The translations under genes were made by a program, and so were the position numbers. DNA of 64,000 nt. It comes from a virus (taxonomy: Duplodnaviria; Heunggongvirae; Uroviricota; Caudoviricetes). This document shows, one piece after another, positions 2,298 through 40,600 of the stretch (positions are counted from its first letter, which is position 1; every line of letters starts with the position of its first letter). The notes below the pieces were generated by a model. That model saw only the letters and a list, made by a program, of their open reading frames with translations. It had not been told where the DNA came from and ran no database searches. The stretch is taken from IMG/VR virus record IMGVR_UViG_2740892427_000001; one strand, 5' to 3'.

Positions 2298-3983
2298 TCA
2301 TTTAACGCGTTTGAAAACGTATACGCTGACTGTGATCCCTGTGTCTTCAAACTCGTTGGTAAACGACTTCCCTCTGGCATAAACGTAATTATCCATCGTC
2401 ATCCAGTCCAGTATTGGCGCAGTGCCCGGCAATACTGCTACAAGACGCCCGCCGACTTTCAGATGCCCCAGCGCAGCCAGCGTGTGCTCTCTATGACGAC
2501 CAAGCGAGTACGGCGGGTTCATAACGATTTTGTCGAACTGATAACCTACGTTGTCCTCAGACCACTTTATGAAGTCGCAGCAAATCGTGTTCGTATACCC
2601 TTTTCCGCGCAGGATATCAGCGAAGAGAGGTGCGATTTCTATGCAGGTAACATCTTCCAGATCGGCGTTAATATAGGCCAGAAGATCCCCACGTCCGGCT
2701 TGAGGCTCCAACAACTTCTCACCAGGCTTCAATTCAGTGGCTCTGGCAACGTACTCAGCAATCAAGCGTGGGGTAGGGTAGAACTGGTGTGATTTTGTAT
2801 CCGGTATTAAACCGGTAGCCACAATCGTATTTAGCGTATGGCCGATCTCATACGGGAACTGCCAGTGCTTTTTCTCCTGCACGCCGCCAATGAAGCTCAG
2901 TGTGCGCTCAAGCTCTTCCACCTGCGACTTCTGGAGAGCTGAATCAGAGAAGTACCATACGCCTTTGTCTTTGCTAAATCGCCCGTCACGAAGCGCAGTG
3001 CGAACCGGCACGGAGATCGTCTTCTGGATTAACCCGAACTGCTTTGGTGCCCGTGTTTTTGGCGCAGTTCGGCATGGCGCGGGAATTGCAGCAGGCATAC
3101 TGTAAGCCAGCACCTCATTCAACTTCCAGGCCACGTCAGGATGTATTTCAAAGTGAACGTTGCCGTTCTTGAACATCTTCACGCGCATCAGATTTCCATC
3201 GACGTTCATCCAGTCACCGGTCTGGCAGTCGTTTGCCCGATACGCAGCTGATAGCACCTCAGCAGTGCGGTTGATGGTAATAAATTCTTTGTGCGCGAAG
3301 AAATGAAGCAAGACACGCAGATCGTCGATATAGTCCTCTTTGCGATAGTTCACACTAACGCTGTCCCGCCAGAAATCAGAAATGCAGTCAGCGATTATCA
3401 GACGTTCGCTGAAACCGTTTGTCTTATTTGTCTTGTGCGCAGGACTCAGCGCCTTAAACAAGCCATACACGCGCTCAGAGAGATATTTGTGCCTGTCATT
3501 CAGCAAATTAAGCATCGTGGGTATGACCGTTTCTGCTTTGAACTCCGGTACACCAACGAACTCTTTAACCTTCATCTGGTAGCCGGTTCTGTCAGTTTTG
3601 ATGACTTCCTGTTTGCCCTCTATAAACTGCTCGCGCCACTCATCTCGACGGGAAGCTGGCATGATCAGCAAAACGTTAGTCATGTCCGTGACCTTCCTCC
3701 AGTACTCGGCCCAAATATTCTGTTTCACCCATTCCAGATCGACTTTATCCAACCAACCTCGATTTAAACGCGAGCGATCTTCATCTGGTCGATGGTTTAG
3801 TCTCAGCAGGCGATTAATCATGTTGTGGCGTTCGTCGCCATAAACGAAGTCGTGTACCTGATACATGAAGGCGATCTCTTTCTCGCACTCGGCCACAATT
3901 TCGTGGATGACGTTCATTTCCTGCCGATAGTCGATAGCAGTGTTTGAGTTGGCATCGTCGATGATGGAAAGGGCTGTATTCAT
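2298..3983 (-). CDS. two-domain protein: N-terminal domain of unknown function fused to C-terminal SAM-dependent DNA methyltransferase domain
   Basis: C-terminal third contains LEPQAGRGDLL (SAM-binding-like) and IVMNPPYSLG ((D/N)PPY catalytic motif of N6-adenine/N4-cytosine MTases). Confidence 0.65.
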   Translation of the reverse strand: MNTALSIIDDANSNTAIDYRQEMNVIHEIVAECEKEIAFMYQVHDFVYGDERHNMINRLLRLNHRPDEDRSRLNRGWLDKVDLEWVKQNIWAEYWRKVTDMTNVLLIMPASRRDEWREQFIEGKQEVIKTDRTGYQMKVKEFVGVPEFKAETVIPTMLNLLNDRHKYLSERVYGLFKALSPAHKTNKTNGFSERLIIADCISDFWRDSVSVNYRKEDYIDDLRVLLHFFAHKEFITINRTAEVLSAAYRANDCQTGDWMNVDGNLMRVKMFKNGNVHFEIHPDVAWKLNEVLAYSMPAAIPAPCRTAPKTRAPKQFGLIQKTISVPVRTALRDGRFSKDKGVWYFSDSALQKSQVEELERTLSFIGGVQEKKHWQFPYEIGHTLNTIVATGLIPDTKSHQFYPTPRLIAEYVARATELKPGEKLLEPQAGRGDLLAYINADLEDVTCIEIAPLFADILRGKGYTNTICCDFIKWSEDNVGYQFDKIVMNPPYSLGRHREHTLAALGHLKVGGRLVAVLPGTAPILDWMTMDNYVYARGKSFTNEFEDTGITVSVYVFKRVK

Positions 3984-5039: not shown

Positions 5040-5609
5040 TCAATTAGAGCTTTGAAAGACTTTGTGTGGTTGTGTTGCGAGGTTATGTCGATGGCTTAAC
5101 TCACGCATCATGTCTTCAAGGCGACTCTTTGTGTCGTCGAGTTGGTCGGCCATTGCTCCCAAAAGCTGACGAACGGCCATCGGATCATCGCTGTTTAGTG
5201 ATGGCATTTTATAACCCGCCTGAGAAGACATAAGATTGAACGCAGACATCAACATCGTTAGAGAGGATTTAAGCCCAGCAATTTCACGATCTTTGCTGGC
5301 AATAATCGCCTCACTCTTGTTAGTGTCATCAGTTCGTTGAGTCTCGCTCACCATATCCAAAGTCGCCTGCAACTTATCAGCGCGCTCTTTTTCAGCAAGA
5401 TAATGAACACCGAAATGATGTGCTAAAGCTACAACCTGAGTTGGCTCTTCAAAGGTGGACTCAAAATTAAGTGCTGTAACCACTCTCTCAAATATGGAAA
5501 CGTCTTCTATTCCTCGAAGAATGGCTAACATTTTGACCAGTTCATTAGCATCCATTTCTTCGAATAAGGCGTTTTGTTCATCAGCTATCGCTTTGCATTT
5601 CTTGCACAT
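5040..5609 (-). CDS. hypothetical protein (189 aa)
   Basis: ORF with AGGAAAAACAC-ATG initiation region and AAACAAGTTGTTT palindrome upstream. Confidence 0.6.
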   Translation of the reverse strand: MCKKCKAIADEQNALFEEMDANELVKMLAILRGIEDVSIFERVVTALNFESTFEEPTQVVALAHHFGVHYLAEKERADKLQATLDMVSETQRTDDTNKSEAIIASKDREIAGLKSSLTMLMSAFNLMSSQAGYKMPSLNSDDPMAVRQLLGAMADQLDDTKSRLEDMMRELSHRHNLATQPHKVFQSSN

Positions 5610-5906
5610 GTGTTTTTCCTAATGCTTAAACAAGTTGTTTTCTTATTGGCTTTATTGTGATGTGGCATAAAAGGGGAGCAAGCTAAACGTAAAGGTGCAA
5701 ACTCTCTATTTCGGTCAACGAAACACAAGGGCCATTTGGCCCTTGTCATTAACACGTTGCTTTACGGACTAGCGGATAAGCGAAGTAGATCGCCAAACCA
5801 ATGAGGACGCCATCAGAAATGACAGACATCATCTTTCCCGTAAAATCCACCAACACCGCCATCACCAGAAGAGCAATGACGATCACAAGCCGGAATCTCT
5901 CAAGCA

Positions 5907-6425: not shown

Positions 6426-6614
6426 TCAGAAATAACCAAGTACCGAACCGACTGGAAAAACAAAAATCCCAACTACACGAGCCAAGGTCATGCCAGCCTG
6501 AAACTGGAGATCGCCAGAGCAAACAAGTTTTATAATGTTCGATACCCAACCGGCGGCCATGAGGGCAAGAATTGCCAGCCAAATTTTTCCAAAGTGATTT
6601 GAAAACCAGTTCAT
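6426..6614 (-). CDS. small hydrophobic membrane protein (62 aa)
   Basis: two predicted TM segments; alternative overlapping frame 6388..6618 looks less protein-like. Confidence 0.4.
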   Translation of the reverse strand: MNWFSNHFGKIWLAILALMAAGWVSNIIKLVCSGDLQFQAGMTLARVVGIFVFPVGSVLGYF

Positions 6615-30525: not shown

Positions 30526-32865
30526 TTACTCTTCTACTGACTCGGTGGGGTTGTCTTTTGCTCTTCGGTCGTCGATTGCCTGCAAAGCCGCAATGATTTC
30601 AGCCAGTGGCTTCTCCCGATACATCTCGACGATCTGCGATTTGGTGTATTTCTTGTCACCAATTTCAACTCGCCCGCTGGCGTTCTTTGGCAGGTATCCT
30701 TCTTCCAGCATGTACTCGACGAGCGATTCGATAACGTCGAGGCCACGAGTAGGATCGAAGTAGAATTTCCAGGTGCATTTGCCATACGGTGGTGCAACTT
30801 TGTTTTTGATGCATTCTGCGCCTACGTCCTGGCCGATCTTCTCTTTACCATCCTTCATCACCGATGCACCAAGACGGATACGTACAGAAGCGTAGAACTT
30901 CGGTGAATCGCCGCCTGGTGACGTAGTAGGGTCGCCAAACATTACACCGATTTTTGTGCGAACCTGATTCAAGAAGATGATGCAGGCGTTGTATTTGCGT
31001 GCCCACAAAGCCAGAGTAGGGAAGTTCGCACTCGTCGCACGAGCCAGTGCCGTATTGTCGTTCATGTTTAGCTGATCTTTGTCTTTGGCAGTGCCTTCAG
31101 CCATCTTTTCGAACTTCTCGGCTTTGGAGTTCGGAACCATAGACGCAAGAGAGTCAGCCACGATACAGATAGGTGCTGATTCGGGGATAAGCTCTTCATC
31201 ACGAACCAATTTAAGTATTGTGCCGATCAACTCTACAGAGTCTTCGAAGGTATCTGGCTGCTTGTATACCCACTGACCGTCATCCTCATCTGCGTTCAGG
31301 CCATTGGCTACAGCCAGGCCAACGTCAAAACTGTTTTCATGATCGAGGAATACCGCCAGACCATCTTGTTTTTGAGCGGAGATCATCGCTGCTGTTGCAA
31401 GGAATGTGTTGTGGCTGATAATCCCGTTAGACCAGAAAGAGTGTGTTTCCGGCATCGCTACGTCGAACGTTGGTGCTTCACCTTCCTCAATAGCCACGAC
31501 TTCGTCGTAGAACAAGTTAGAGCCAATTACCGCTGCCAGTTGTGCAAACAGATGCTCGTTAAAACGATTCTTTCTGCCAATGAAGGAGACATAGATTTCT
31601 CGCAGTTTGTCTATTCCGACACGATCGCCGCGGCCAATAACGTGGTCTACCAGAGCGTAGTCTTCACGGGTGGTCTTGGTGAGCGACTCGTAGAGTGATT
31701 TCACTAAGCCGCTGATGTGCGGAACATAGCCTGAGTAAGTGCGGTCAAAACCAATGTCCCGTTTGGTTGCCACTGATAAACGTGCCGGAGATTCGAAACC
31801 AATCGTTGACAGAAAAAGGTCGTAATTAGAGCCACTGAATGACAGCCGGTAATATGTATTTTCATAACCCGCGACGTGTTTTTCAGAGATAGTTGACGTA
31901 ATCCCCAGATTCAGGAGCATGAGGCGAATTTGCTGTAGCAGCAGCCCACTCGCGCTCACAACCTCAATGCAGCGACCATCATTGACGTGGCATTCCAGCT
32001 CAAAGTAGCCGCGAAGGAATGCAATTTGAGCCTCGCTATTGGCGCGACGCACACTCAACGGAACCTGCTTGCCAGCATCTTTCTCATACTCCAGACCATA
32101 TTCTTTAAAAAGCAGCGAACGCACCTCTTTGCTAAACAGCACATGGTCTTCCGAGCCGTTATGTTTTCTCGTAACTGGCATCTTGTCTGATACCAGCGAA
32201 ATGAGGCGGTAGTACTCATCCTTGATGAAAGGATCTGTGTTAGAAAAATTCACTGAATTTTCAGAGGCCACGTATCCGTCAGCAATTAAATAGCCCATCA
32301 GTTTTGCGATATTGGCATCCAGGTGCTGATCGCCGAATTGATGTGTGCCAACCATTGAAGGAATCGTGTCGCCTACACTGATTTTTTCAGCATGTCGCCA
32401 GACGACATTACCTAAGTCGTCAACCACACGGATTGGGTGACGGAACGTAGCCTCGATATAACCGCCTGATGCCAGCTTAATACGCTTGAATTTGCGACGG
32501 TTGTTCCATGTCAGGTGTGAGGTCTTCTCTATCACGCCATTTTCATTGATGAGTCCAACGTTATGCTCTACATCGCGAGTAGTGCATGTCGCTTTGTACC
32601 CTTCAATCTCAAACAACTCTTTCACTGTTACCATTCCACGCTCCGTCAGCAGCATGGTGTCTGCGGTAACACATTTCCCCGCGCTTGGTGGCCCGAATAC
32701 TTCGACGATACGACCACATGGGAAGCCGCCATCGTAACGACCAGAAATAGCTTTGTTTAACGGTGGAAAGCCTGTATCAATCCAATGAGTTACTTTCTGA
32801 ATTTCGTCGTTGCTACCGATTTTCTTTTTCAGAGCAAGTGCCAGTGCGGATTTTCCTTTTGCCAT
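30526..32865 (-). CDS. recA: RecA/UvsX-like recombinase precursor containing an intein
   Basis: exteins GRIVEVFGPPSAGK / TFLATAAMISAQ...IIFLNQVRTKIGVMFGDP...KFYASVRIRLG match the RecA core; 422-aa insert in the P-loop. Confidence 0.9.
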   Translation of the reverse strand: MAKGKSALALALKKKIGSNDEIQKVTHWIDTGFPPLNKAISGRYDGGFPCGRIVEVFGPPSAGKCVTADTMLLTERGMVTVKELFEIEGYKATCTTRDVEHNVGLINENGVIEKTSHLTWNNRRKFKRIKLASGGYIEATFRHPIRVVDDLGNVVWRHAEKISVGDTIPSMVGTHQFGDQHLDANIAKLMGYLIADGYVASENSVNFSNTDPFIKDEYYRLISLVSDKMPVTRKHNGSEDHVLFSKEVRSLLFKEYGLEYEKDAGKQVPLSVRRANSEAQIAFLRGYFELECHVNDGRCIEVVSASGLLLQQIRLMLLNLGITSTISEKHVAGYENTYYRLSFSGSNYDLFLSTIGFESPARLSVATKRDIGFDRTYSGYVPHISGLVKSLYESLTKTTREDYALVDHVIGRGDRVGIDKLREIYVSFIGRKNRFNEHLFAQLAAVIGSNLFYDEVVAIEEGEAPTFDVAMPETHSFWSNGIISHNTFLATAAMISAQKQDGLAVFLDHENSFDVGLAVANGLNADEDDGQWVYKQPDTFEDSVELIGTILKLVRDEELIPESAPICIVADSLASMVPNSKAEKFEKMAEGTAKDKDQLNMNDNTALARATSANFPTLALWARKYNACIIFLNQVRTKIGVMFGDPTTSPGGDSPKFYASVRIRLGASVMKDGKEKIGQDVGAECIKNKVAPPYGKCTWKFYFDPTRGLDVIESLVEYMLEEGYLPKNASGRVEIGDKKYTKSQIVEMYREKPLAEIIAALQAIDDRRAKDNPTESVEE
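31408..32673 (-). mobile_element. intein with LAGLIDADG homing-endonuclease domain, inserted in the recA Walker A motif
   Basis: starts Cys (CVTADTMLL), TxxH block ATFRHP, LMGYLIADGYV and FLRGYFELECHV, ends ...NGIISHN followed by Thr+1. Confidence 0.8.
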
Positions 32866-32867
32866 GA

Positions 32868-35284: not shown

Positions 35285-35716
35285 TCAACGGGGAGTAATA
35301 AAGCGTTCAGAGCCTAATCGCTCTAATTCAACGATGGCCATCTTTGACGCCTGAACGATCATGTCTCGGCGATGCGAAAAGGCGGCGACAGCATGTTTGT
35401 ATATGTCTGCGATGTGCCGTGCTTCATCCAACTTCTGCCGTTTAGACAGATACTGTGGGTTTGTTTTAACCTTAGCGTCCAGTACAGACTCGTTGAACTT
35501 AATGCCGTTCATACTCAAGTTCTTACGCTCTGTGTCGTATAGCTTTGCTTCAACAGCTTCAAGGTTAAGTTTTGCCTCTGCGACATCTCGATCTGCCTGC
35601 GCTAGTTTTGACCCATACTCCATTAAAAGCCGTGGCTGTTTACGCCATACTTCCTCAAGGTTGTCGCGGTCGAACTCCAGATCGGCCATGATTTTAGAAA
35701 AAATATCAGTGTTCAC
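35285..35716 (-). CDS. hypothetical protein (143 aa); possible recombination mediator by position next to SSB/RecA
   Basis: ORF; coiled-coil-like; context only. Confidence 0.45.
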   Translation of the reverse strand: MNTDIFSKIMADLEFDRDNLEEVWRKQPRLLMEYGSKLAQADRDVAEAKLNLEAVEAKLYDTERKNLSMNGIKFNESVLDAKVKTNPQYLSKRQKLDEARHIADIYKHAVAAFSHRRDMIVQASKMAIVELERLGSERFITPR

Positions 35717-35924
35717 TCTAATAGGTTCCTACTTATAAAATCTGTATCAATTATATCAAACAGAGAACGGGTTTATGGCGTCATGTCAACTTTGTTCAGG
35801 GGAAAATATTGAGATCACCGAAGATAATTAGTTGTCTTATTTTGGTAAGCTGTGCTGACCATCTTTAGGTCACATACATGAGATGGATGGGGGTGTGGCA
35901 TGAACGGATGAAATTCAGTCGCCG

Positions 35925-35953
35925 TTGACAGATGTCAACACTGTGAATAGAAT
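35925..35953 (+). promoter_or_regulatory. sigma70-consensus promoter TTGACA-17 bp-TAGAAT with the -35 inside the palindrome GTTGACAgaTGTCAAC
   Basis: -35 at 35925-35930, -10 at 35948-35953, GGAGG RBS at 35963-35967, ATG 35971. Confidence 0.6.
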
Positions 35954-35970
35954 ACTATTATCGGAGGCGA

Positions 35971-36195
35971 ATGAAGCAACATCCGAATAAGCATATTCAA
36001 GCAGCCATTGACTATGCATTAAGTAAAGGCTGGATCTGGGTAGCAGCTGGTGGTGCTGCACATTGTTTTTGCAGACTGCGATGCGGTAATCCAGAAGGTG
36101 AACACAAAACTCACCAAATGAGCGTATGGTCGACTCCGGGTAATCCCGAAAACCATGCCAAACAGATCAAACGAATGGTTGATCGTTGTAAATGA
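35971..36195 (+). CDS. small basic Cys/His-containing protein (74 aa); HicA-like resemblance is weak
   Basis: ORF with strong promoter and RBS; followed by terminator hairpin 36200-36221. Confidence 0.5.
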   Translation: MKQHPNKHIQAAIDYALSKGWIWVAAGGAAHCFCRLRCGNPEGEHKTHQMSVWSTPGNPENHAKQIKRMVDRCK

Positions 36196-36199
36196 TTTC

Positions 36200-36221
36200 A
36201 AGGCGGCATTAGCCGCCTTTT
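36200..36221 (+). terminator. rho-independent terminator AAGGCGGCattaGCCGCCTTTT
   Basis: GC stem plus T-run. Confidence 0.65.
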
Positions 36222-36255
36222 GCAGAAACTGTCCAACTATCTTCAAAGGAAAACT

Positions 36256-36819
36256 ATGGCGCTTTATAACTTCACTCTGACGCTCTCAGGCGTATCGTAT
36301 GAGACGGAAGGACTGGAAGACGCGCTGTACCAAAACGGCTGTGACGATGCGCTAATTTGCGCATATGGAAACTCCGTCTATGTAGAATTTGACCGCGAAG
36401 CACAATCACTTGATGCAGCTATCGCATCTGCGGTCGACAATATTGAATCAGCCGGTATCGGTGCAATTGTTGAATCCGTCGACTCGGCTCTTGTGGGCTT
36501 AAGCGATATCGCGGAACTGACAGACCTGTCTCGCCAGGCAGTGGCGTTGCTCAAAGACGGTAAGCGCGGAAGCGGCGACTTCCCTTGCCCTGTACAACGC
36601 ATAAAAGGCCAGTCTCCTCTCTGGGATTGGGCTGATGTGGCTGAATGGCTCATGAATAACGGACGACTTAAAGAGGGCGATCAAATTGTCCAAAATGCCC
36701 GAACTTTGAGTAAATGGAATCTGGCGCTTCGAAACAGCGTCTCGAAAGATTTCAACGAAATAGAGCAAATTGCGGAGAAACTGATTAAACGCCGCAAAGA
36801 TATTGCGAAATGCGCATAA
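36256..36819 (+). CDS. hypothetical protein with internal HTH-like segment (188 aa)
   Basis: start set to ATG 36256 (AAGGAAAACT-ATG); LTDLSRQAVALLKDGKRG helix-turn-helix-like. Confidence 0.5.
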   Translation: MALYNFTLTLSGVSYETEGLEDALYQNGCDDALICAYGNSVYVEFDREAQSLDAAIASAVDNIESAGIGAIVESVDSALVGLSDIAELTDLSRQAVALLKDGKRGSGDFPCPVQRIKGQSPLWDWADVAEWLMNNGRLKEGDQIVQNARTLSKWNLALRNSVSKDFNEIEQIAEKLIKRRKDIAKCA

Positions 36820-36820
36820 T

Positions 36821-36844
36821 GATGCCCGCCAATTGGCGGGCATC
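36821..36844 (+). terminator. stem-loop GATGCCCGCCaattGGCGGGCATC
   Basis: 10-bp perfect stem immediately after the stop codon. Confidence 0.55.
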
Positions 36845-36935
36845 TGTTCTCTGTAAAGGTGTCTGGCATCGTCTGGTTCGTTAACGTTTACTAAACCAAT
36901 GGTGACAAAAATTAGTTATCTTTGAAAAATAAAGG

Positions 36936-36964
36936 TTGCATGAAAAGAAGGGGTATGCGTTAAT
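36936..36964 (+). promoter_or_regulatory. cspA-like promoter (TTGCAT-17 bp-GTTAAT) with AT-rich upstream element, giving a ~180-nt 5' UTR
   Basis: hexamers at 36936-36941 and 36959-36964; resembles the host cspA promoter arrangement from memory. Confidence 0.4.
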
Positions 36965-37148
36965 AGCATCGTTGGTTTGCAAGACAGACCTTATGTAAGC
37001 AGTTTTAGTAAAGCAGTCTCAGTTCAGTGTTATCTTCTGATTTCCCTTCTTCGTGAGTCTCCTCCTTAAGTGCCTAAGTAAGTCCCAATCTATACAGATC
37101 AAATTCTCGCCGCACTATGTGGCTCACAAAATTAAGAAGGTAATATCT

Positions 37149-37364
37149 ATGTCTAATAAAATGACTGGTTTAGTAAAATGGTTTAACTCTGATAAAGGCT
37201 TTGGCTTTATTTCTCCTGCTGATGGCAGTAAAGATGTTTTTGTACATTTTTCGGCAATTCAGAGTAATAATTTCCGCACTTTGGAAGAAGGCCAGCAGGT
37301 CGAATTCTCTATCGAGAATGGTGCTAAAGGCCCAGCAGCAGCAAATGTCGTTGCTCTAAGCTGA
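37149..37364 (+). CDS. cspA: cold-shock protein, CspA family
   Basis: [23 protein letters not shown]...[10 protein letters not shown]...[20 protein letters not shown]: RNP1/RNP2 cold-shock-domain motifs; start set to internal ATG 37149. Confidence 0.9.
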
Positions 37365-37639
37365 TTCAACGCTGATGATCCTCATTTCTACAATAACGAA
37401 GACGGTGTAAGCCTGAGTGGATAGATTTGTAGGATTGTACAAGTTGAATAAATTAGCATGGTAAGGCCATGCTAATTAAATCGACACAACGGCCAGTTTA
37501 TTCCATAAAAGTGAATTGCCCATTGTGGCGAAATGCGGGGTTGCCGCATGAATAGTCAAAGGCAGAAGCTAACTGCCGGCATGGCAAAACAAAGTGCGTA
37601 AGAGGAGTGACTTCCTCAACAAGCGCCATAATTCTTTAT

Positions 37640-37661
37640 AAACCCGCCAACAGGCGGGTTT
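37640..37661. terminator. bidirectional terminator AAACCCGCCaacaGGCGGGTTT + TCTTTATT
   Basis: perfect 9-bp stem between convergent csp and dnaE. Confidence 0.7.
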
Positions 37662-37667
37662 TCTTTA

Positions 37668-40600
37668 TTACTTATTTATTGTCTCCGCGATATCAGCCAG
37701 AATGGCCTCCAGTCGCTCTCCTTCTTCCGGTCGGAAGTACAGGATATTCGGGTTAAATCCGTAGAAGACGGTTGCATCAAGCTCTGGGAAGTACTCCTTA
37801 CGACCAATCAGATCTGATGGTTTACTCTTATTGTTAAATAGTGCGGTTGAACGACTACCACACGTCAAAATGTAGGTTGGTCGTACAAGATTAATTTCTT
37901 CCCGCATAAAGTCTGTGAACTGGCCTATCTCGTCTTTGGTATAGTCTTTCTCTTTGTCCTTAACCTTCTTACAAACACCCGTGACATAAAGATCGCCCAT
38001 GCGCAGATCTCCAACTGTCAGTAGTTTTGCCTTAAAGTCGTCGTATCCGTTCTCCATGAAGTAGCCGGTACGAGCGTCATTGCCGTTCGCATTGTCCAGA
38101 ATGATCATGATTTTGGGTTTAATACCAATAGTCGGGCGTATCAACTCCTCACCCAAGCCCATTTCAGCCGCCATACGTGTCATGAGTACGTTGATTTCGG
38201 CAGAACGCTTAGGATTCATTTCGAACGGACGTGATGCTTTAACAGCGTCAATGATGAGATTGCCCATCAGCTCAGCCTGGTCGCGCAGTCGTTCAGGATC
38301 AGTTGCTGGCAGACTGCCTGGCTCAATTGACGCAAAAGCCCCTACTTTATGAAGCGACTCGCGTACACGACTGTTACATGCACGCTTCTCGACCGCTTCA
38401 TCGAATTGTGCCACTGACTCGAATTTGCCACCAACTTTCTCACGCGCACGCATAATTGCCTGACAACCATTTTCAGAACAGCCTTTCACAGCAGAGAATG
38501 GCGCATACAGTGCCTGACTGCCGTCTTCGAGTGTGCGGATCTCAATTCGGTTAGATGACACATTAACGTCTGGTGGCAATACGCGAATGCCATAGGTCAG
38601 CGCATCCTTCACCAGCCCCTGATGCTTATCCTCGCCCAGAATGGTGAGCGCAGCTGCGAAGAACTCAGCAGGGTAGTGCGTCTTTAGCCACATAGACTGA
38701 TAACTGATTAAAGAATAAGCAACACTGTGTGATTTGTTGAAGGCATATCCACCGAACTTCTCAAAGGCGTCCCATATTTCTTGGGCTTTTTCCTTACTGA
38801 GACCTTCTTGTTCAGAGACGATCTCCACGTAGTCTATGCCGTCACTAATAGCCTCGCTGTAGCTTCTACGCTTACCGTCTGAGCAATCCAGTTTTGCGTG
38901 TTTGTGAACCTCTACAGTACCTCCATTTTTGAGTGACAGTGTCACCCAGCCTGCTTGTGCTCGTTCTACAAAATCGCTGCCGATCGCTTTCATCTTATCC
39001 ATGTTCTTTTTACCGATAGCGGAACGCAGAGCGTCTGCTTCGGCCATAGAGAACCCGGCAAGTACTCGGGAACTTTGCATGATTTGTTCCTGATAGAGCA
39101 AAACACCATTAGTCTCCCGGGTGACTTCCTCAAGACGCGGATGAATTGAATGTGGAGCCATGAAGCCTTTGGCCACGGAGACATAGTCGTCCAACATGCC
39201 GGATTGGATCGGGCCTGGTCGGAAGAGTGCGGTCGTGGCGACAACGGTCTTGAAGCTCATTGGCTCGATGCCACCGCCCAGATCTTTAAGCAACTTACGC
39301 ATGGGGCCGGACTCCAGCTGGAATACGCCCTGCGTGTACCCTGCAGCGAACCCATCCAGAACCTTGCGATCGTCCAGTGGGATAGCGTCGAGATTGATGT
39401 CTTCCCCGGTACTCTCTTTGATGTAGCGTTTCGCGCTATCCAGAAGATCGAGCGTTGCCAGGCCAAGCACGTCCAGCTTAATTAGGCCCATAGCCTCGCA
39501 GTAACGCTTGTCAAATGCGATACAACGCGCGTCACCACGGCGCTCAACCGGTGTACGTTCTGTCAGAGGAACACCTGCTACGATCATCCCTGCCGCATGT
39601 CTACCAAAGCCACGCATAAGGCTTTGTAACTTGCAGGCTGCATTGAATGCATCAGGATATTTTGTTGCGTATTTGTCGAGACTTGCCAGTTGTTCGCGCA
39701 GCTCTTCCAATGGAAGGCTATCATCCTCGACGTTCTTCAGTTCTTTTGATACCGCCATATCTGCGGACTCCACACCATAAATACGAGCGGTGTCACGTAG
39801 TGCAGATGCCGCGCCCAGATAGGTGAAGTTCGGAATGCCTGCAACGTAATCTTCGCCGTAGCGTTCATTCAGATACTCGATCACCTCATGGCGACGTGCC
39901 TGGCTGAAGTCCAAGTCCGCATCCGGCAAGTCGAGACGCTCAGGGTTGATGAAACGCTCAAACAGAAGACCGTGACGGATTGGGTCGACGTTGGTTATGC
40001 CTATGCACCACGCCACCAGAGAACCGGCAGAGGAACCACGACCAGGCCCGACAGGAATGCCAGTTTCACGGCTGTGATTCATCAGATCGCGTACCATCAG
40101 GAAGTAACCACAGAATCCCAGGCGAGTCAGCGTGTCCATTTCGTACTTTAGCCGCTCAACATAAACCCTGTTCTCAGAAGCAGGTGGTGTGTATCCAAAC
40201 TCTTTTGTGGTAAGACGTTTACGCAGCCCTGCAACAGCCAGTTTCATCAGCGTTGCAGGTTCGTCGTCTGCCATCTTGGGCAGTGCTGGTGGCAATTCAT
40301 GCCAGCGCCATGTGCAGGCATCGATAATGGAGTCCTGCGTTGTTGAGGCCATTGCAGCTGTTACCGGCACATCCATGCGAACGGAGAAGGCTTTAAGCGC
40401 CTCAAGGAGATGGCGACGACCATTGATGGCGTTATCTCGCTGGTGGGGGATACGCAGACGATGCGGCTGGTCGATTTTTATGTTGTTCGTAACCATGTGC
40501 GCAATGTCTTTAATGTCTGCATCGTCGATCGATTCGTAATAAGCGGGATAGAACGCCACTGGCTCTATTTTCAATGCGCTGGCTACTTTCATCGCTCGGA

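Follow-up and report, generated by a model that had tools for sequence, protein, structure and literature searches.

The question raised by this locus is whether three plus-strand genes set within a minus-strand replication block belong to one accessory island. They are found in a 64,000-nucleotide stretch of viral DNA (IMG/VR record IMGVR_UViG_2740892427_000001, here called the window at its full length) and encode a small basic protein (A), a helix-turn-helix (HTH) protein (B), and a CspA homolog (csp). Alignment of window positions 35700-37700 revealed 99.8% identity, in reverse orientation, to Escherichia phage Cyrano (OV696614.1, 108,379 bp). Cyrano is plasmid pLF82 of the adherent-invasive E. 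coli strain LF82, an SSU5-like phage-plasmid with a copy number of ~5.5 per cell and with other annotated toxin-antitoxin (TA) pairs of the KacT and RelE/ParE types (PMC9928086). The flanking uvsY-like gene, the gene for the gp32-type single-stranded DNA-binding protein, and dnaE were all on the minus strand, in keeping with the minus-strand replication block of the original prediction, and the features it described were all present, at or at most 1-2 nt from where it had placed them. Their grouping fared differently. The region consists of two independent cargo modules, the A-B pair (35924-36844) and a csp cassette (36936-37661); both kinds of module are already known, and the finding is real but largely ordinary. 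With slightly better than even confidence, we read A-B as an autoregulated operon of the PDC-M06 type working like a type II TA system, and csp as a separate cold-shock unit of the cspB type.

The distribution of the genes separates the two modules. We compared 80 genome loci found via protein B and 60 viral contigs found via protein A, and only Cyrano-type sequences had a csp gene immediately after the pair. SSU5-like relatives carry the pair at the same point of the backbone, flanked by the uvsY-like gene and dnaE; measured from B to where dnaE ends, the distances formed four classes, at about 476, 855 (Cyrano), 1207, and 1424 nt. The slot of the 476-nt class holds a 147-aa minus-strand DUF7740 gene; in Cyrano, it holds the csp cassette instead. 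Because the slot contents differ among relatives, we regard the slot after B as a cargo hotspot and csp as a lineage-specific replacement. The single accessory island of the original prediction was thus refuted by distribution, the pair being conserved in SSU5-like phage-plasmids and chromosomes and csp being an insertion of the Cyrano lineage only. A functional form of the same idea would couple csp to the pair, for example as an RNA chaperone modulating an RNase activity of A or as part of a three-component system. In favor of such coupling, the three genes stand next to one another in one orientation, both in Cyrano and in about 90 near-identical E. coli plasmids, and PADLOC does contain defense models with a cold-shock domain (CSD), namely CSD_V (E 9.4e-16) and the retron Se72 effector. 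However, the pair was found without csp in about 140 other loci, and in three other loci a csp gene turned up kilobases away, unrelated to the pair. Moreover, csp has its own promoter and the A-B operon its own terminator, the csp cassette and both its flanks are homologous to the cspB locus of lambdoid prophages, and relatives carry different cargo in the slot after B. We rejected the three-gene island, which the distribution of csp and of the pair makes highly improbable.

Gene A (CYRAN_51; 35971..36195, plus strand; 74-aa open reading frame) and gene B (CYRAN_50; 36256..36819, plus strand; 187-aa open reading frame) lie on the same strand with a gap of 60 nt. Their products matched the two PADLOC models of PDC-M06, A matching PDC-M06A (PDLC04383, E 1.2e-19) and B matching PDC-M06B (PDLC04388, E 1.3e-32). 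PDC-M06 (CAS_00046) is one of 145 PADLOC phage-defense candidates; it goes back to cassettes located inside BREX, DISARM, or type I restriction-modification (RM) systems, and 497 cassettes were counted (Payne et al., bioRxiv 10.1101/2024.01.29.577857). The pair is a member of this catalogued two-gene family and has TA-like genomic behavior, with A as the putative toxin and B as the putative antitoxin and autorepressor. Generic features of type II TA systems were found in the form of a small bicistronic operon with a conserved operator of autoregulatory type and of loss of the toxin candidate while its partner persists.

Protein A is small and basic (pI 9.5), as described originally, and rich in Cys and His. 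It matched no Pfam or NCBIfam family. Its own family comprised 740 representatives at 50% identity, and A itself is a member of phrog_5923, a phrog without a functional label. H4 and P56 were invariant in the family, and K7, W21, H31, C38, a Cys or His at position 48, T55, and C73 were near-invariant; most members also had a His two residues after C73. The Cys/His set may form a structural Zn site, judging from its conservation. The AF2 model of A (pLDDT 87.9) showed the order alpha-beta-beta-(short helix)-beta-alpha, in which H31, present in 66 of 68 family members, lies at the start of beta2; the catalytic histidine of HicA toxins sits where beta1 meets beta2. A sub-threshold Pfam match to RuBisCO_small appeared in 39 of 53 family members (best E 1.2e-4) and was treated as spurious. 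As a separate observation, one Shewanella homologue of A (P0039) is named 'ribulose bisphosphate carboxylase small subunit' at NCBI, probably through a propagated mis-annotation.

The pair already bears a different label. In the ENA record OV696614.1, A is named 'HicA toxin protein' and B 'putative antitoxin HicB' (Misson et al. 2023), and the pair could accordingly be a genuine, highly diverged HicA/HicB system, with A as a HicA-family mRNA interferase and B as a HicB antitoxin. The order alpha-beta-beta-beta-alpha in A, the toxin-first gene order, the DNA-binding partner, and the palindromic operator, the last three as in class 3 hicAB, would agree with this. Profile searches did not. PF07927 (HicA_toxin) matched neither A nor any of 53 family members at E<=10, no HicA match was found in NCBIfam, and a PDB profile search with A returned no HicA. 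Profile-profile alignment (HHalign) of the 68-sequence A family with a 43-sequence HicA profile gave 75% probability over only 20 columns, out of order, pairing the N-terminus of A with the C-terminal PRHP-helix motif of HicA; this test is weak because the HicA profile is narrow (E. coli-type sequences with at least 62% identity to the first sequence). A Foldseek search of the PDB with the A model gave no significant match (best E 0.69) and no HicA. In RefSeq, PGAP names the products on identical E. coli plasmids 'hypothetical protein' (A), 'helix-turn-helix transcriptional regulator' (B), and 'cspG' (csp).

The fold of B bears on the same question. The HTH protein of the original prediction was present, with a length of 187 rather than 188 aa; homologues start at MALYNF. 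Its AF2 model (pLDDT 89.3) showed an N-domain of beta-alpha-beta-beta-alpha-beta order, a winged HTH, and two long C-terminal helices, which we assign to an acidic ferredoxin-like N-domain (residues 1-75), an AlpA/excisionase-type winged HTH (about 80-135), and a C-terminal helical hairpin. The N-domain has a pI of 4.05, compared with 9.5 for A. The defining feature of HicB is a partial RNase H fold at its N-terminus (PMC10865869), and the N-domain of B is ferredoxin-like instead; the other feature expected of HicB, a DNA-binding HTH domain together with a palindromic operator in the operon promoter, was present. The published HicAB label is unsupported by sequence for A and contradicted by the fold for B, and we consider a diverged HicAB system rather improbable.

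The promoter region of the pair gave the sharpest comparative signal. The sigma70-type promoter proposed originally, TTGACA-17-TAGAAT (35925..35953, plus strand), agrees with the consensus at 11 of 12 positions and was the best of four promoter-like sites in 35300-38000; the number of such sites was not above chance (4 found, 4.5 expected). Homologous loci conserved it, with a TAnnnT -10 element at 17 nt after TTGACA. The -35 hexamer does lie inside a palindrome, the exact inverted repeat GTTGACAGATGTCAAC (35924..35939), which has the form GTTGAC-N4-GTCAAC and overlaps the hexamer. This palindrome occurs once in the window. Of 82 homologous loci, 74 carried the strict form GTTGAC-N4-GTCAAC in the 450 nt preceding B, and about 985 kb of fetched flanks contained no further copy; its central 4 nt and the surrounding sequence vary freely among loci. 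The site resembles that of a dimeric repressor acting over the -35 element, and B is the obvious predicted binder. Because the operator occurs once in the window and not at all in those flanks, there is no sign of a wider B regulon.

Variation around the operator was also observed. A motif, CTGGCCGTAGACAG, lies ~40-60 nt upstream of the operator (locus coordinates ~5590-5640) in loci L004, L005, L008, L009, L012, L014, L016, and L020, on plasmids and chromosomes; it forms a hairpin with a constant loop, GCCGTAGA, and a variable but complementary stem. Cyrano lacks the motif and carries TGACC-N7-GGTCA (35855-35871) in its stead. In Y. pestis, the corresponding type of module copy (L007, NCTC5923 contig ~5630-5650; L125-L130, L132) has a degenerate right half-site, GTTGACACGCGCTCAC, with A and B apparently intact, and autoregulation in that lineage may, on this reading of the sequence, be relaxed or altered.

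The original prediction that each gene ends in its own hairpin held for two of the three hairpins. An intrinsic terminator of the A-B operon (36821..36844, plus strand) has a 10-bp stem with 8 GC pairs and a T-rich tail, and a homologous hairpin is found downstream of B in relatives; the hairpin at 37640-37661, after csp, also has the terminator pattern. The hairpin between the genes, read from the sequence as AAGGCGGC-ATTA-GCCGCCTT followed by TTTTG (36200..36219, plus strand), fails this pattern because only four Ts follow the stem, and it is better called a conserved stem-loop between A and B. A strong stem-loop right after the A stop codon was found in most loci with an A-B spacer of at least 48 nt, the structure being kept and the sequence differing. 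In some loci (L004-L153 spacers), a T-run follows it. The stem-loop may attenuate or stabilize the transcript.

Transcription of the pair in the carrier state, from a host-type promoter as predicted, is documented by RNA-seq of the LF82 lysogen, in which transcripts of CYRAN_51 (A) exceeded the local prophage background 30x and those of CYRAN_50 (B) exceeded it 14x (Misson et al. 2023, PMC9928086). The intergenic stem-loop may explain this A/B transcript ratio.

When the pair was followed across genomes, about 66 of the 80 loci found via B had A immediately before B in the same orientation. All 60 viral loci found via A had A followed by B, with a matching B in 59; many of these loci are near-identical, so the independent lineages number fewer than 60. 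The order held down to 41-44% identity for A and 29-44% for B. An intact A was missing from 13 of the 80 B-found loci, where the gene was frameshifted (L021, L033, L081, L083), truncated (L041, L068, L071), or absent (L013, L017, L018, L034, L040, L046). These 13 loci came from 11 genera, and the tblastn match to B spanned 164-187 of its 187 residues (the B frames being unchecked for stops), with N-terminally shortened matches in L018 (from residue 12) and L034 (from residue 20). Loss of A with retention of B fits a toxin and its antitoxin or repressor, as far as gene content can indicate. The 'toxin-like protein' of the original prediction is therefore borne out in part: the strict pairing, the conserved operator, and the loss of A while B is kept fit it, but a match to HicA or HicB was not found.

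The module is mobile. The A gene was found on 299 plasmid records, including Y. pestis plasmids; these were mostly non-mobilizable and, among those listed, about 95-120 kb in size. The pair also occurred in SSU5 itself, in chromosomes, and in a P2/HP1-like prophage of Histophilus somni, where it lies beside a Phd/YoeB pair.

The same gene-loss pattern can be read another way. The pair could be a non-toxic regulatory module in which B is a ligand- or partner-sensing factor (ACT/HMA-like domain plus HTH) and A a small Zn-binding co-regulator or anti-repressor, useless without B, that together control other genes of the element or the host. An accessory factor of B would be just as likely to leave this trace, with A always accompanied by B and B at times on its own. 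Fixed chromosomal sites in housekeeping surroundings, shared across genera and poor in defense genes, also suit a regulator, as do the resemblance of the ferredoxin-like domain of B to the ACT/RAM domains of AsnC/Lrp-type regulators, the Cys/His pattern of A with its suggestion of a structural Zn site, and the higher level of A mRNA than of B mRNA. The uniqueness of the operator in the window and in the flanks argues against control of other genes. So does the movement of the module as a two-gene unit among phage-plasmids, P2-like prophages, and chromosomes, and PDC-M06 was first collected from inside defense systems. In addition, the invariant His and the conserved Lys and Thr on the basic surface of A look catalytic or RNA-binding rather than purely structural. 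We judge a purely regulatory role unlikely; because it explains the loss pattern equally well, we hold our confidence in a TA-like mechanism only a little above even.

Under the TA-like mechanism, host RNA polymerase would start at the promoter at 35925-35953 and transcribe A and then B. B would dimerize and bind GTTGAC-N4-GTCAAC via its AlpA-type winged HTH and, because the operator covers the -35 hexamer, is proposed to repress its own operon. The acidic ferredoxin-like N-domain of B would bind and neutralize the basic A. A would be the effector, most likely a HicA-like metal-independent RNase with the invariant His on an alpha-beta-beta-beta-alpha scaffold and the Cys/His site bracing it. 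The pair would then kill or arrest cells that lose the phage-plasmid (addiction), and it might also abort infection by other phages. From the genomic patterns and the models, we infer the toxicity of A, its neutralization by B, binding of B to the operator, the RNase chemistry, Zn binding, the role in addiction or defense, and the cold induction of csp discussed below.

Several results weigh against this proposal. PDC-M06 is a bioinformatic candidate only, and no paper mentioning it was found in a literature search. A has no sequence link to HicA or to any known toxin in Pfam (all 53 members), NCBIfam, or PDB profiles, its short HHalign match to HicA is out of order, and the N-domain of B lacks the fold of HicB. 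In L113 (4218-4790), a metagenomic viral contig, A is intact and B lacks its first ~16 codons and an obvious start codon; this locus either breaks the rule that a functional B always accompanies A or represents an element that is dead or misassembled. The lysogen holds more A mRNA than B mRNA, with a hairpin between the genes, and an excess of antitoxin is usually expected. The 150 neighbor proteins at 30 diverse chromosomal loci were mostly housekeeping (ABC transporters, epimerases, GNAT, FolB, GST) with few defense proteins, and some genera share one gene neighborhood around the pair, which is less typical of selfish or defense modules. Finally, for the csp part of the proposal, partition-function folding of the csp leader at 10-42 C left the accessibility of the Shine-Dalgarno (SD) sequence and AUG unchanged for Cyrano csp and also for E. 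coli cspB, a result to be read with the limit that equilibrium folding is not expected to capture a co-transcriptional switch. A defense-island context was also considered for the chromosomal copies and set aside, as the PADLOC matches of the neighbors were largely generic ABC ATPase cross-matches (11 ABC_tran; 9-12 mad8, mad3, or AriA).

The second module is a cold-shock cassette of ordinary composition. Its csp gene (37149..37364, plus strand) encodes a 71-aa protein of the CspA family, cspB/cspG-like, and the predicted CspA homology was evident from the match to PF00313 (CSD; E 1.4e-33, 115 bits against a cut-off of 27). The protein also scored 146.6 bits against the NCBIfam CspG equivalog (cut-off 144) and 140.2 against the CspA subfamily (cut-off 130). 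The leader, originally put at ~180 nt, measures 178 nt (36971..37148, plus strand) and contains a cold-box hairpin, an upstream-box hairpin, and an SD sequence. Rfam family RF01766 matched 36971-37389 with 187.6 bits (gathering score 78; model 1-428), and the leader alone (36971-37152) gave 29.8 bits (E 2.9e-6; model 1-164). Upstream lies a promoter of the cspA/cspB type (36936..36964, plus strand) with -35 TTGCAT, a 17-nt spacer, and the extended -10 TGcGTTAAT, preceded by an AT-rich UP-like tract (36903-36933, plus strand). The cspA-like promoter of the original prediction was recognizable in the -10 region 'TATGCGTTAAT', which the E. coli K-12-type cspB promoter region shares without a mismatch; the hexamers named here would be the functional ones by analogy with the layout of the cspA promoter. 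The ENA record OV696614.1 has no csp feature, and csp is therefore also absent from the published list of Cyrano cargo genes.

Positions 36954-37670 of the window aligned at about 72% identity with the cspB locus that Qin-type lambdoid prophages carry in E. coli, where the Q antiterminator lies on one side and the holin gene on the other. Conservation with cspB included both leader hairpins, cold box and upstream box, and the initial 60 nt of the coding sequence. Promoter, cold box, upstream box, and coding start are the features that define the cold-inducible csp paralogues cspA/B/G/I. Since these features are present, the likely function of csp is that of an extra cold-inducible RNA chaperone for the lysogen. 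The cassette forms a complete cspB-type unit, with UP-like tract, extended -10, leader, CSD protein, structured 3' untranslated region (UTR), and terminator, probably acquired from a lambdoid prophage or the host pool in place of the DUF7740 gene of relatives. Phage-borne cspB and cspI are known cargo and are highly expressed in the LF82 prophage Tritos (PMC9928086); the Cyrano cassette is likewise ordinary phage cargo.

The cassette ends in a terminator hairpin, possibly bidirectional (37640..37661), that abuts the dnaE stop codon (37668-37670). It is conserved in the E. coli cspB 3' flank, and together with the dnaE end it also matches a relative without the cassette (H86). The hairpins at 36821-36844 and 37640-37661 resemble each other (core CCCGCC...GGCGGG), and these cassette-flanking hairpins also resemble the single post-B terminator of csp-less relatives (L004 ~6565-6595) and the E. 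coli cspB terminator. The cassette may have entered by recombination at short terminator homology, a route suggested by sequence likeness.

Comparison of the Cyrano and E. coli cspB loci revealed a further conserved segment. The distal 3' flank (about 37510-37639) was 80% identical, close to the coding sequence (81%), compared with only 50-56% for the promoter, leader, and proximal 3' UTR. A protein-coding origin of this conservation was rejected, as 1-nt indels break both candidate frames. The segment contains a conserved structured RNA element in the csp 3' UTR (37522..37632, plus strand), with an outer stem and three or four hairpins and the terminator after it; the fold has an energy of -54.4 kcal/mol (z -2.8). 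Outside the window, the element lies at L002 ~3050-3200 (the K-12-type copy, about 150-310 nt past the cspB stop codon) and at L157 ~900-1010. Among three variants (Cyrano, the K-12 type, and phage PHB10), 9 of 39 predicted pairs were compensatory and 98% of cells were paired, and slid controls with the partner moved by 1-3 columns gave 0-2 compensatory pairs. The G-U pairs favor the csp sense strand. The element matched no Rfam family, and a literature search for a cspB 3'-UTR small RNA found nothing relevant. It is unannotated; of 5,426 complete E. coli genomes, 1,717 contained it. These features suggest that it may be a 3'-UTR-derived regulatory RNA, and with three variants only it stays a lead.

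Taken to their full extent, the two modules would make A-B a new type II TA or abortive-infection family, with a Zn-braced HicA-like mini-RNase and an antitoxin carrying a ferredoxin-like domain, that is a backbone fixture of SSU5-like phage-plasmids, including the Y. pestis pMT1 type, and provides addiction and phage exclusion, and would make the 3' element of cspB type a new prophage-borne regulatory RNA. We put forward this joint reading tentatively, as possible but unlikely to hold in all its parts.

Two observations concern the surrounding replication genes (window ~30527-32866, minus strand, L001 2827-5166; L084 2548-4890 and 10053-14305). In close relatives, the 780-aa RecA gene had Pfam matches to intein and LAGLIDADG families. 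Some relatives have dnaE interrupted by a homing-endonuclease gene of the HNH/NUMOD4 kind; in the window, dnaE is a single 1168-aa open reading frame.

The pair matters because SSU5-like phage-plasmids are common in clinical Enterobacteriaceae, with the A gene on about 80 Escherichia plasmids, and because what keeps phage-plasmids in cells and what their hosts gain bear on plasmid persistence and phage therapy. The 'HicAB' label rests on nothing detectable in sequence, and the partner is not HicB; the TA hallmarks and the sharply defined operator make PDC-M06 a directly testable new family. About one complete E. coli genome in three carries the unannotated csp 3' RNA, possibly a regulatory RNA of a new kind.

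Among known systems, PDC-M06 is the closest to the pair: A and B match both of its models, adjacent, co-oriented, and in the order A then B. Unlike the cassettes from which the models came, however, the Cyrano pair sits on a phage-plasmid backbone and not inside BREX, DISARM, or RM systems, and most sampled chromosomal copies have housekeeping neighbors. In class 3 hicAB, the toxin gene comes first and the antitoxin combines a neutralizing N-domain with a DNA-binding domain, and the HicA fold is alpha-beta-beta-beta-alpha and resembles a double-stranded RNA-binding domain (PMC10865869). The A-B module has the same layout, with a small basic protein first, a partner composed of an N-terminal globular and a DNA-binding domain, and a palindromic operator in the promoter. 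It differs in that no sequence homology was detected and Foldseek was negative for A. Compared with HicA, A has 11 inserted residues that include a short helix, as well as conserved Cys/His residues absent from HicA. The N-domain of B is ferredoxin-like rather than partial RNase H, and it is followed by an AlpA/MerR-type winged HTH and then a helical hairpin, not by an Xre-HTH or ribbon-helix-helix domain. The module therefore matches a class 3 hicAB operon in layout and cannot be classed as hicAB.

The phd/doc operon of P1 is a plasmid-prophage addiction module. Like it, A-B is a two-gene operon, predicted to be autoregulated, on a phage kept as a low-copy plasmid, and it is expressed in the lysogen; unlike phd/doc, it consists of unrelated protein families in reversed order, with the putative toxin first. 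The csp cassette differs from cspA in having a 300-nt 3' UTR instead of a terminator right after the stop codon. It differs from E. coli cspB in its location, on an SSU5-like phage-plasmid and not in a lambdoid prophage with Q on one side and the lysis genes on the other, and in its leader, which is only about 56% identical. In other respects it resembles cspB closely: the Cyrano CSD protein is 85% identical to CspB (tblastn), the promoter, the cold-box and upstream-box hairpins, the coding start, and the 3' flank are homologous, and the gene is phage-borne, as cspB and cspI are.

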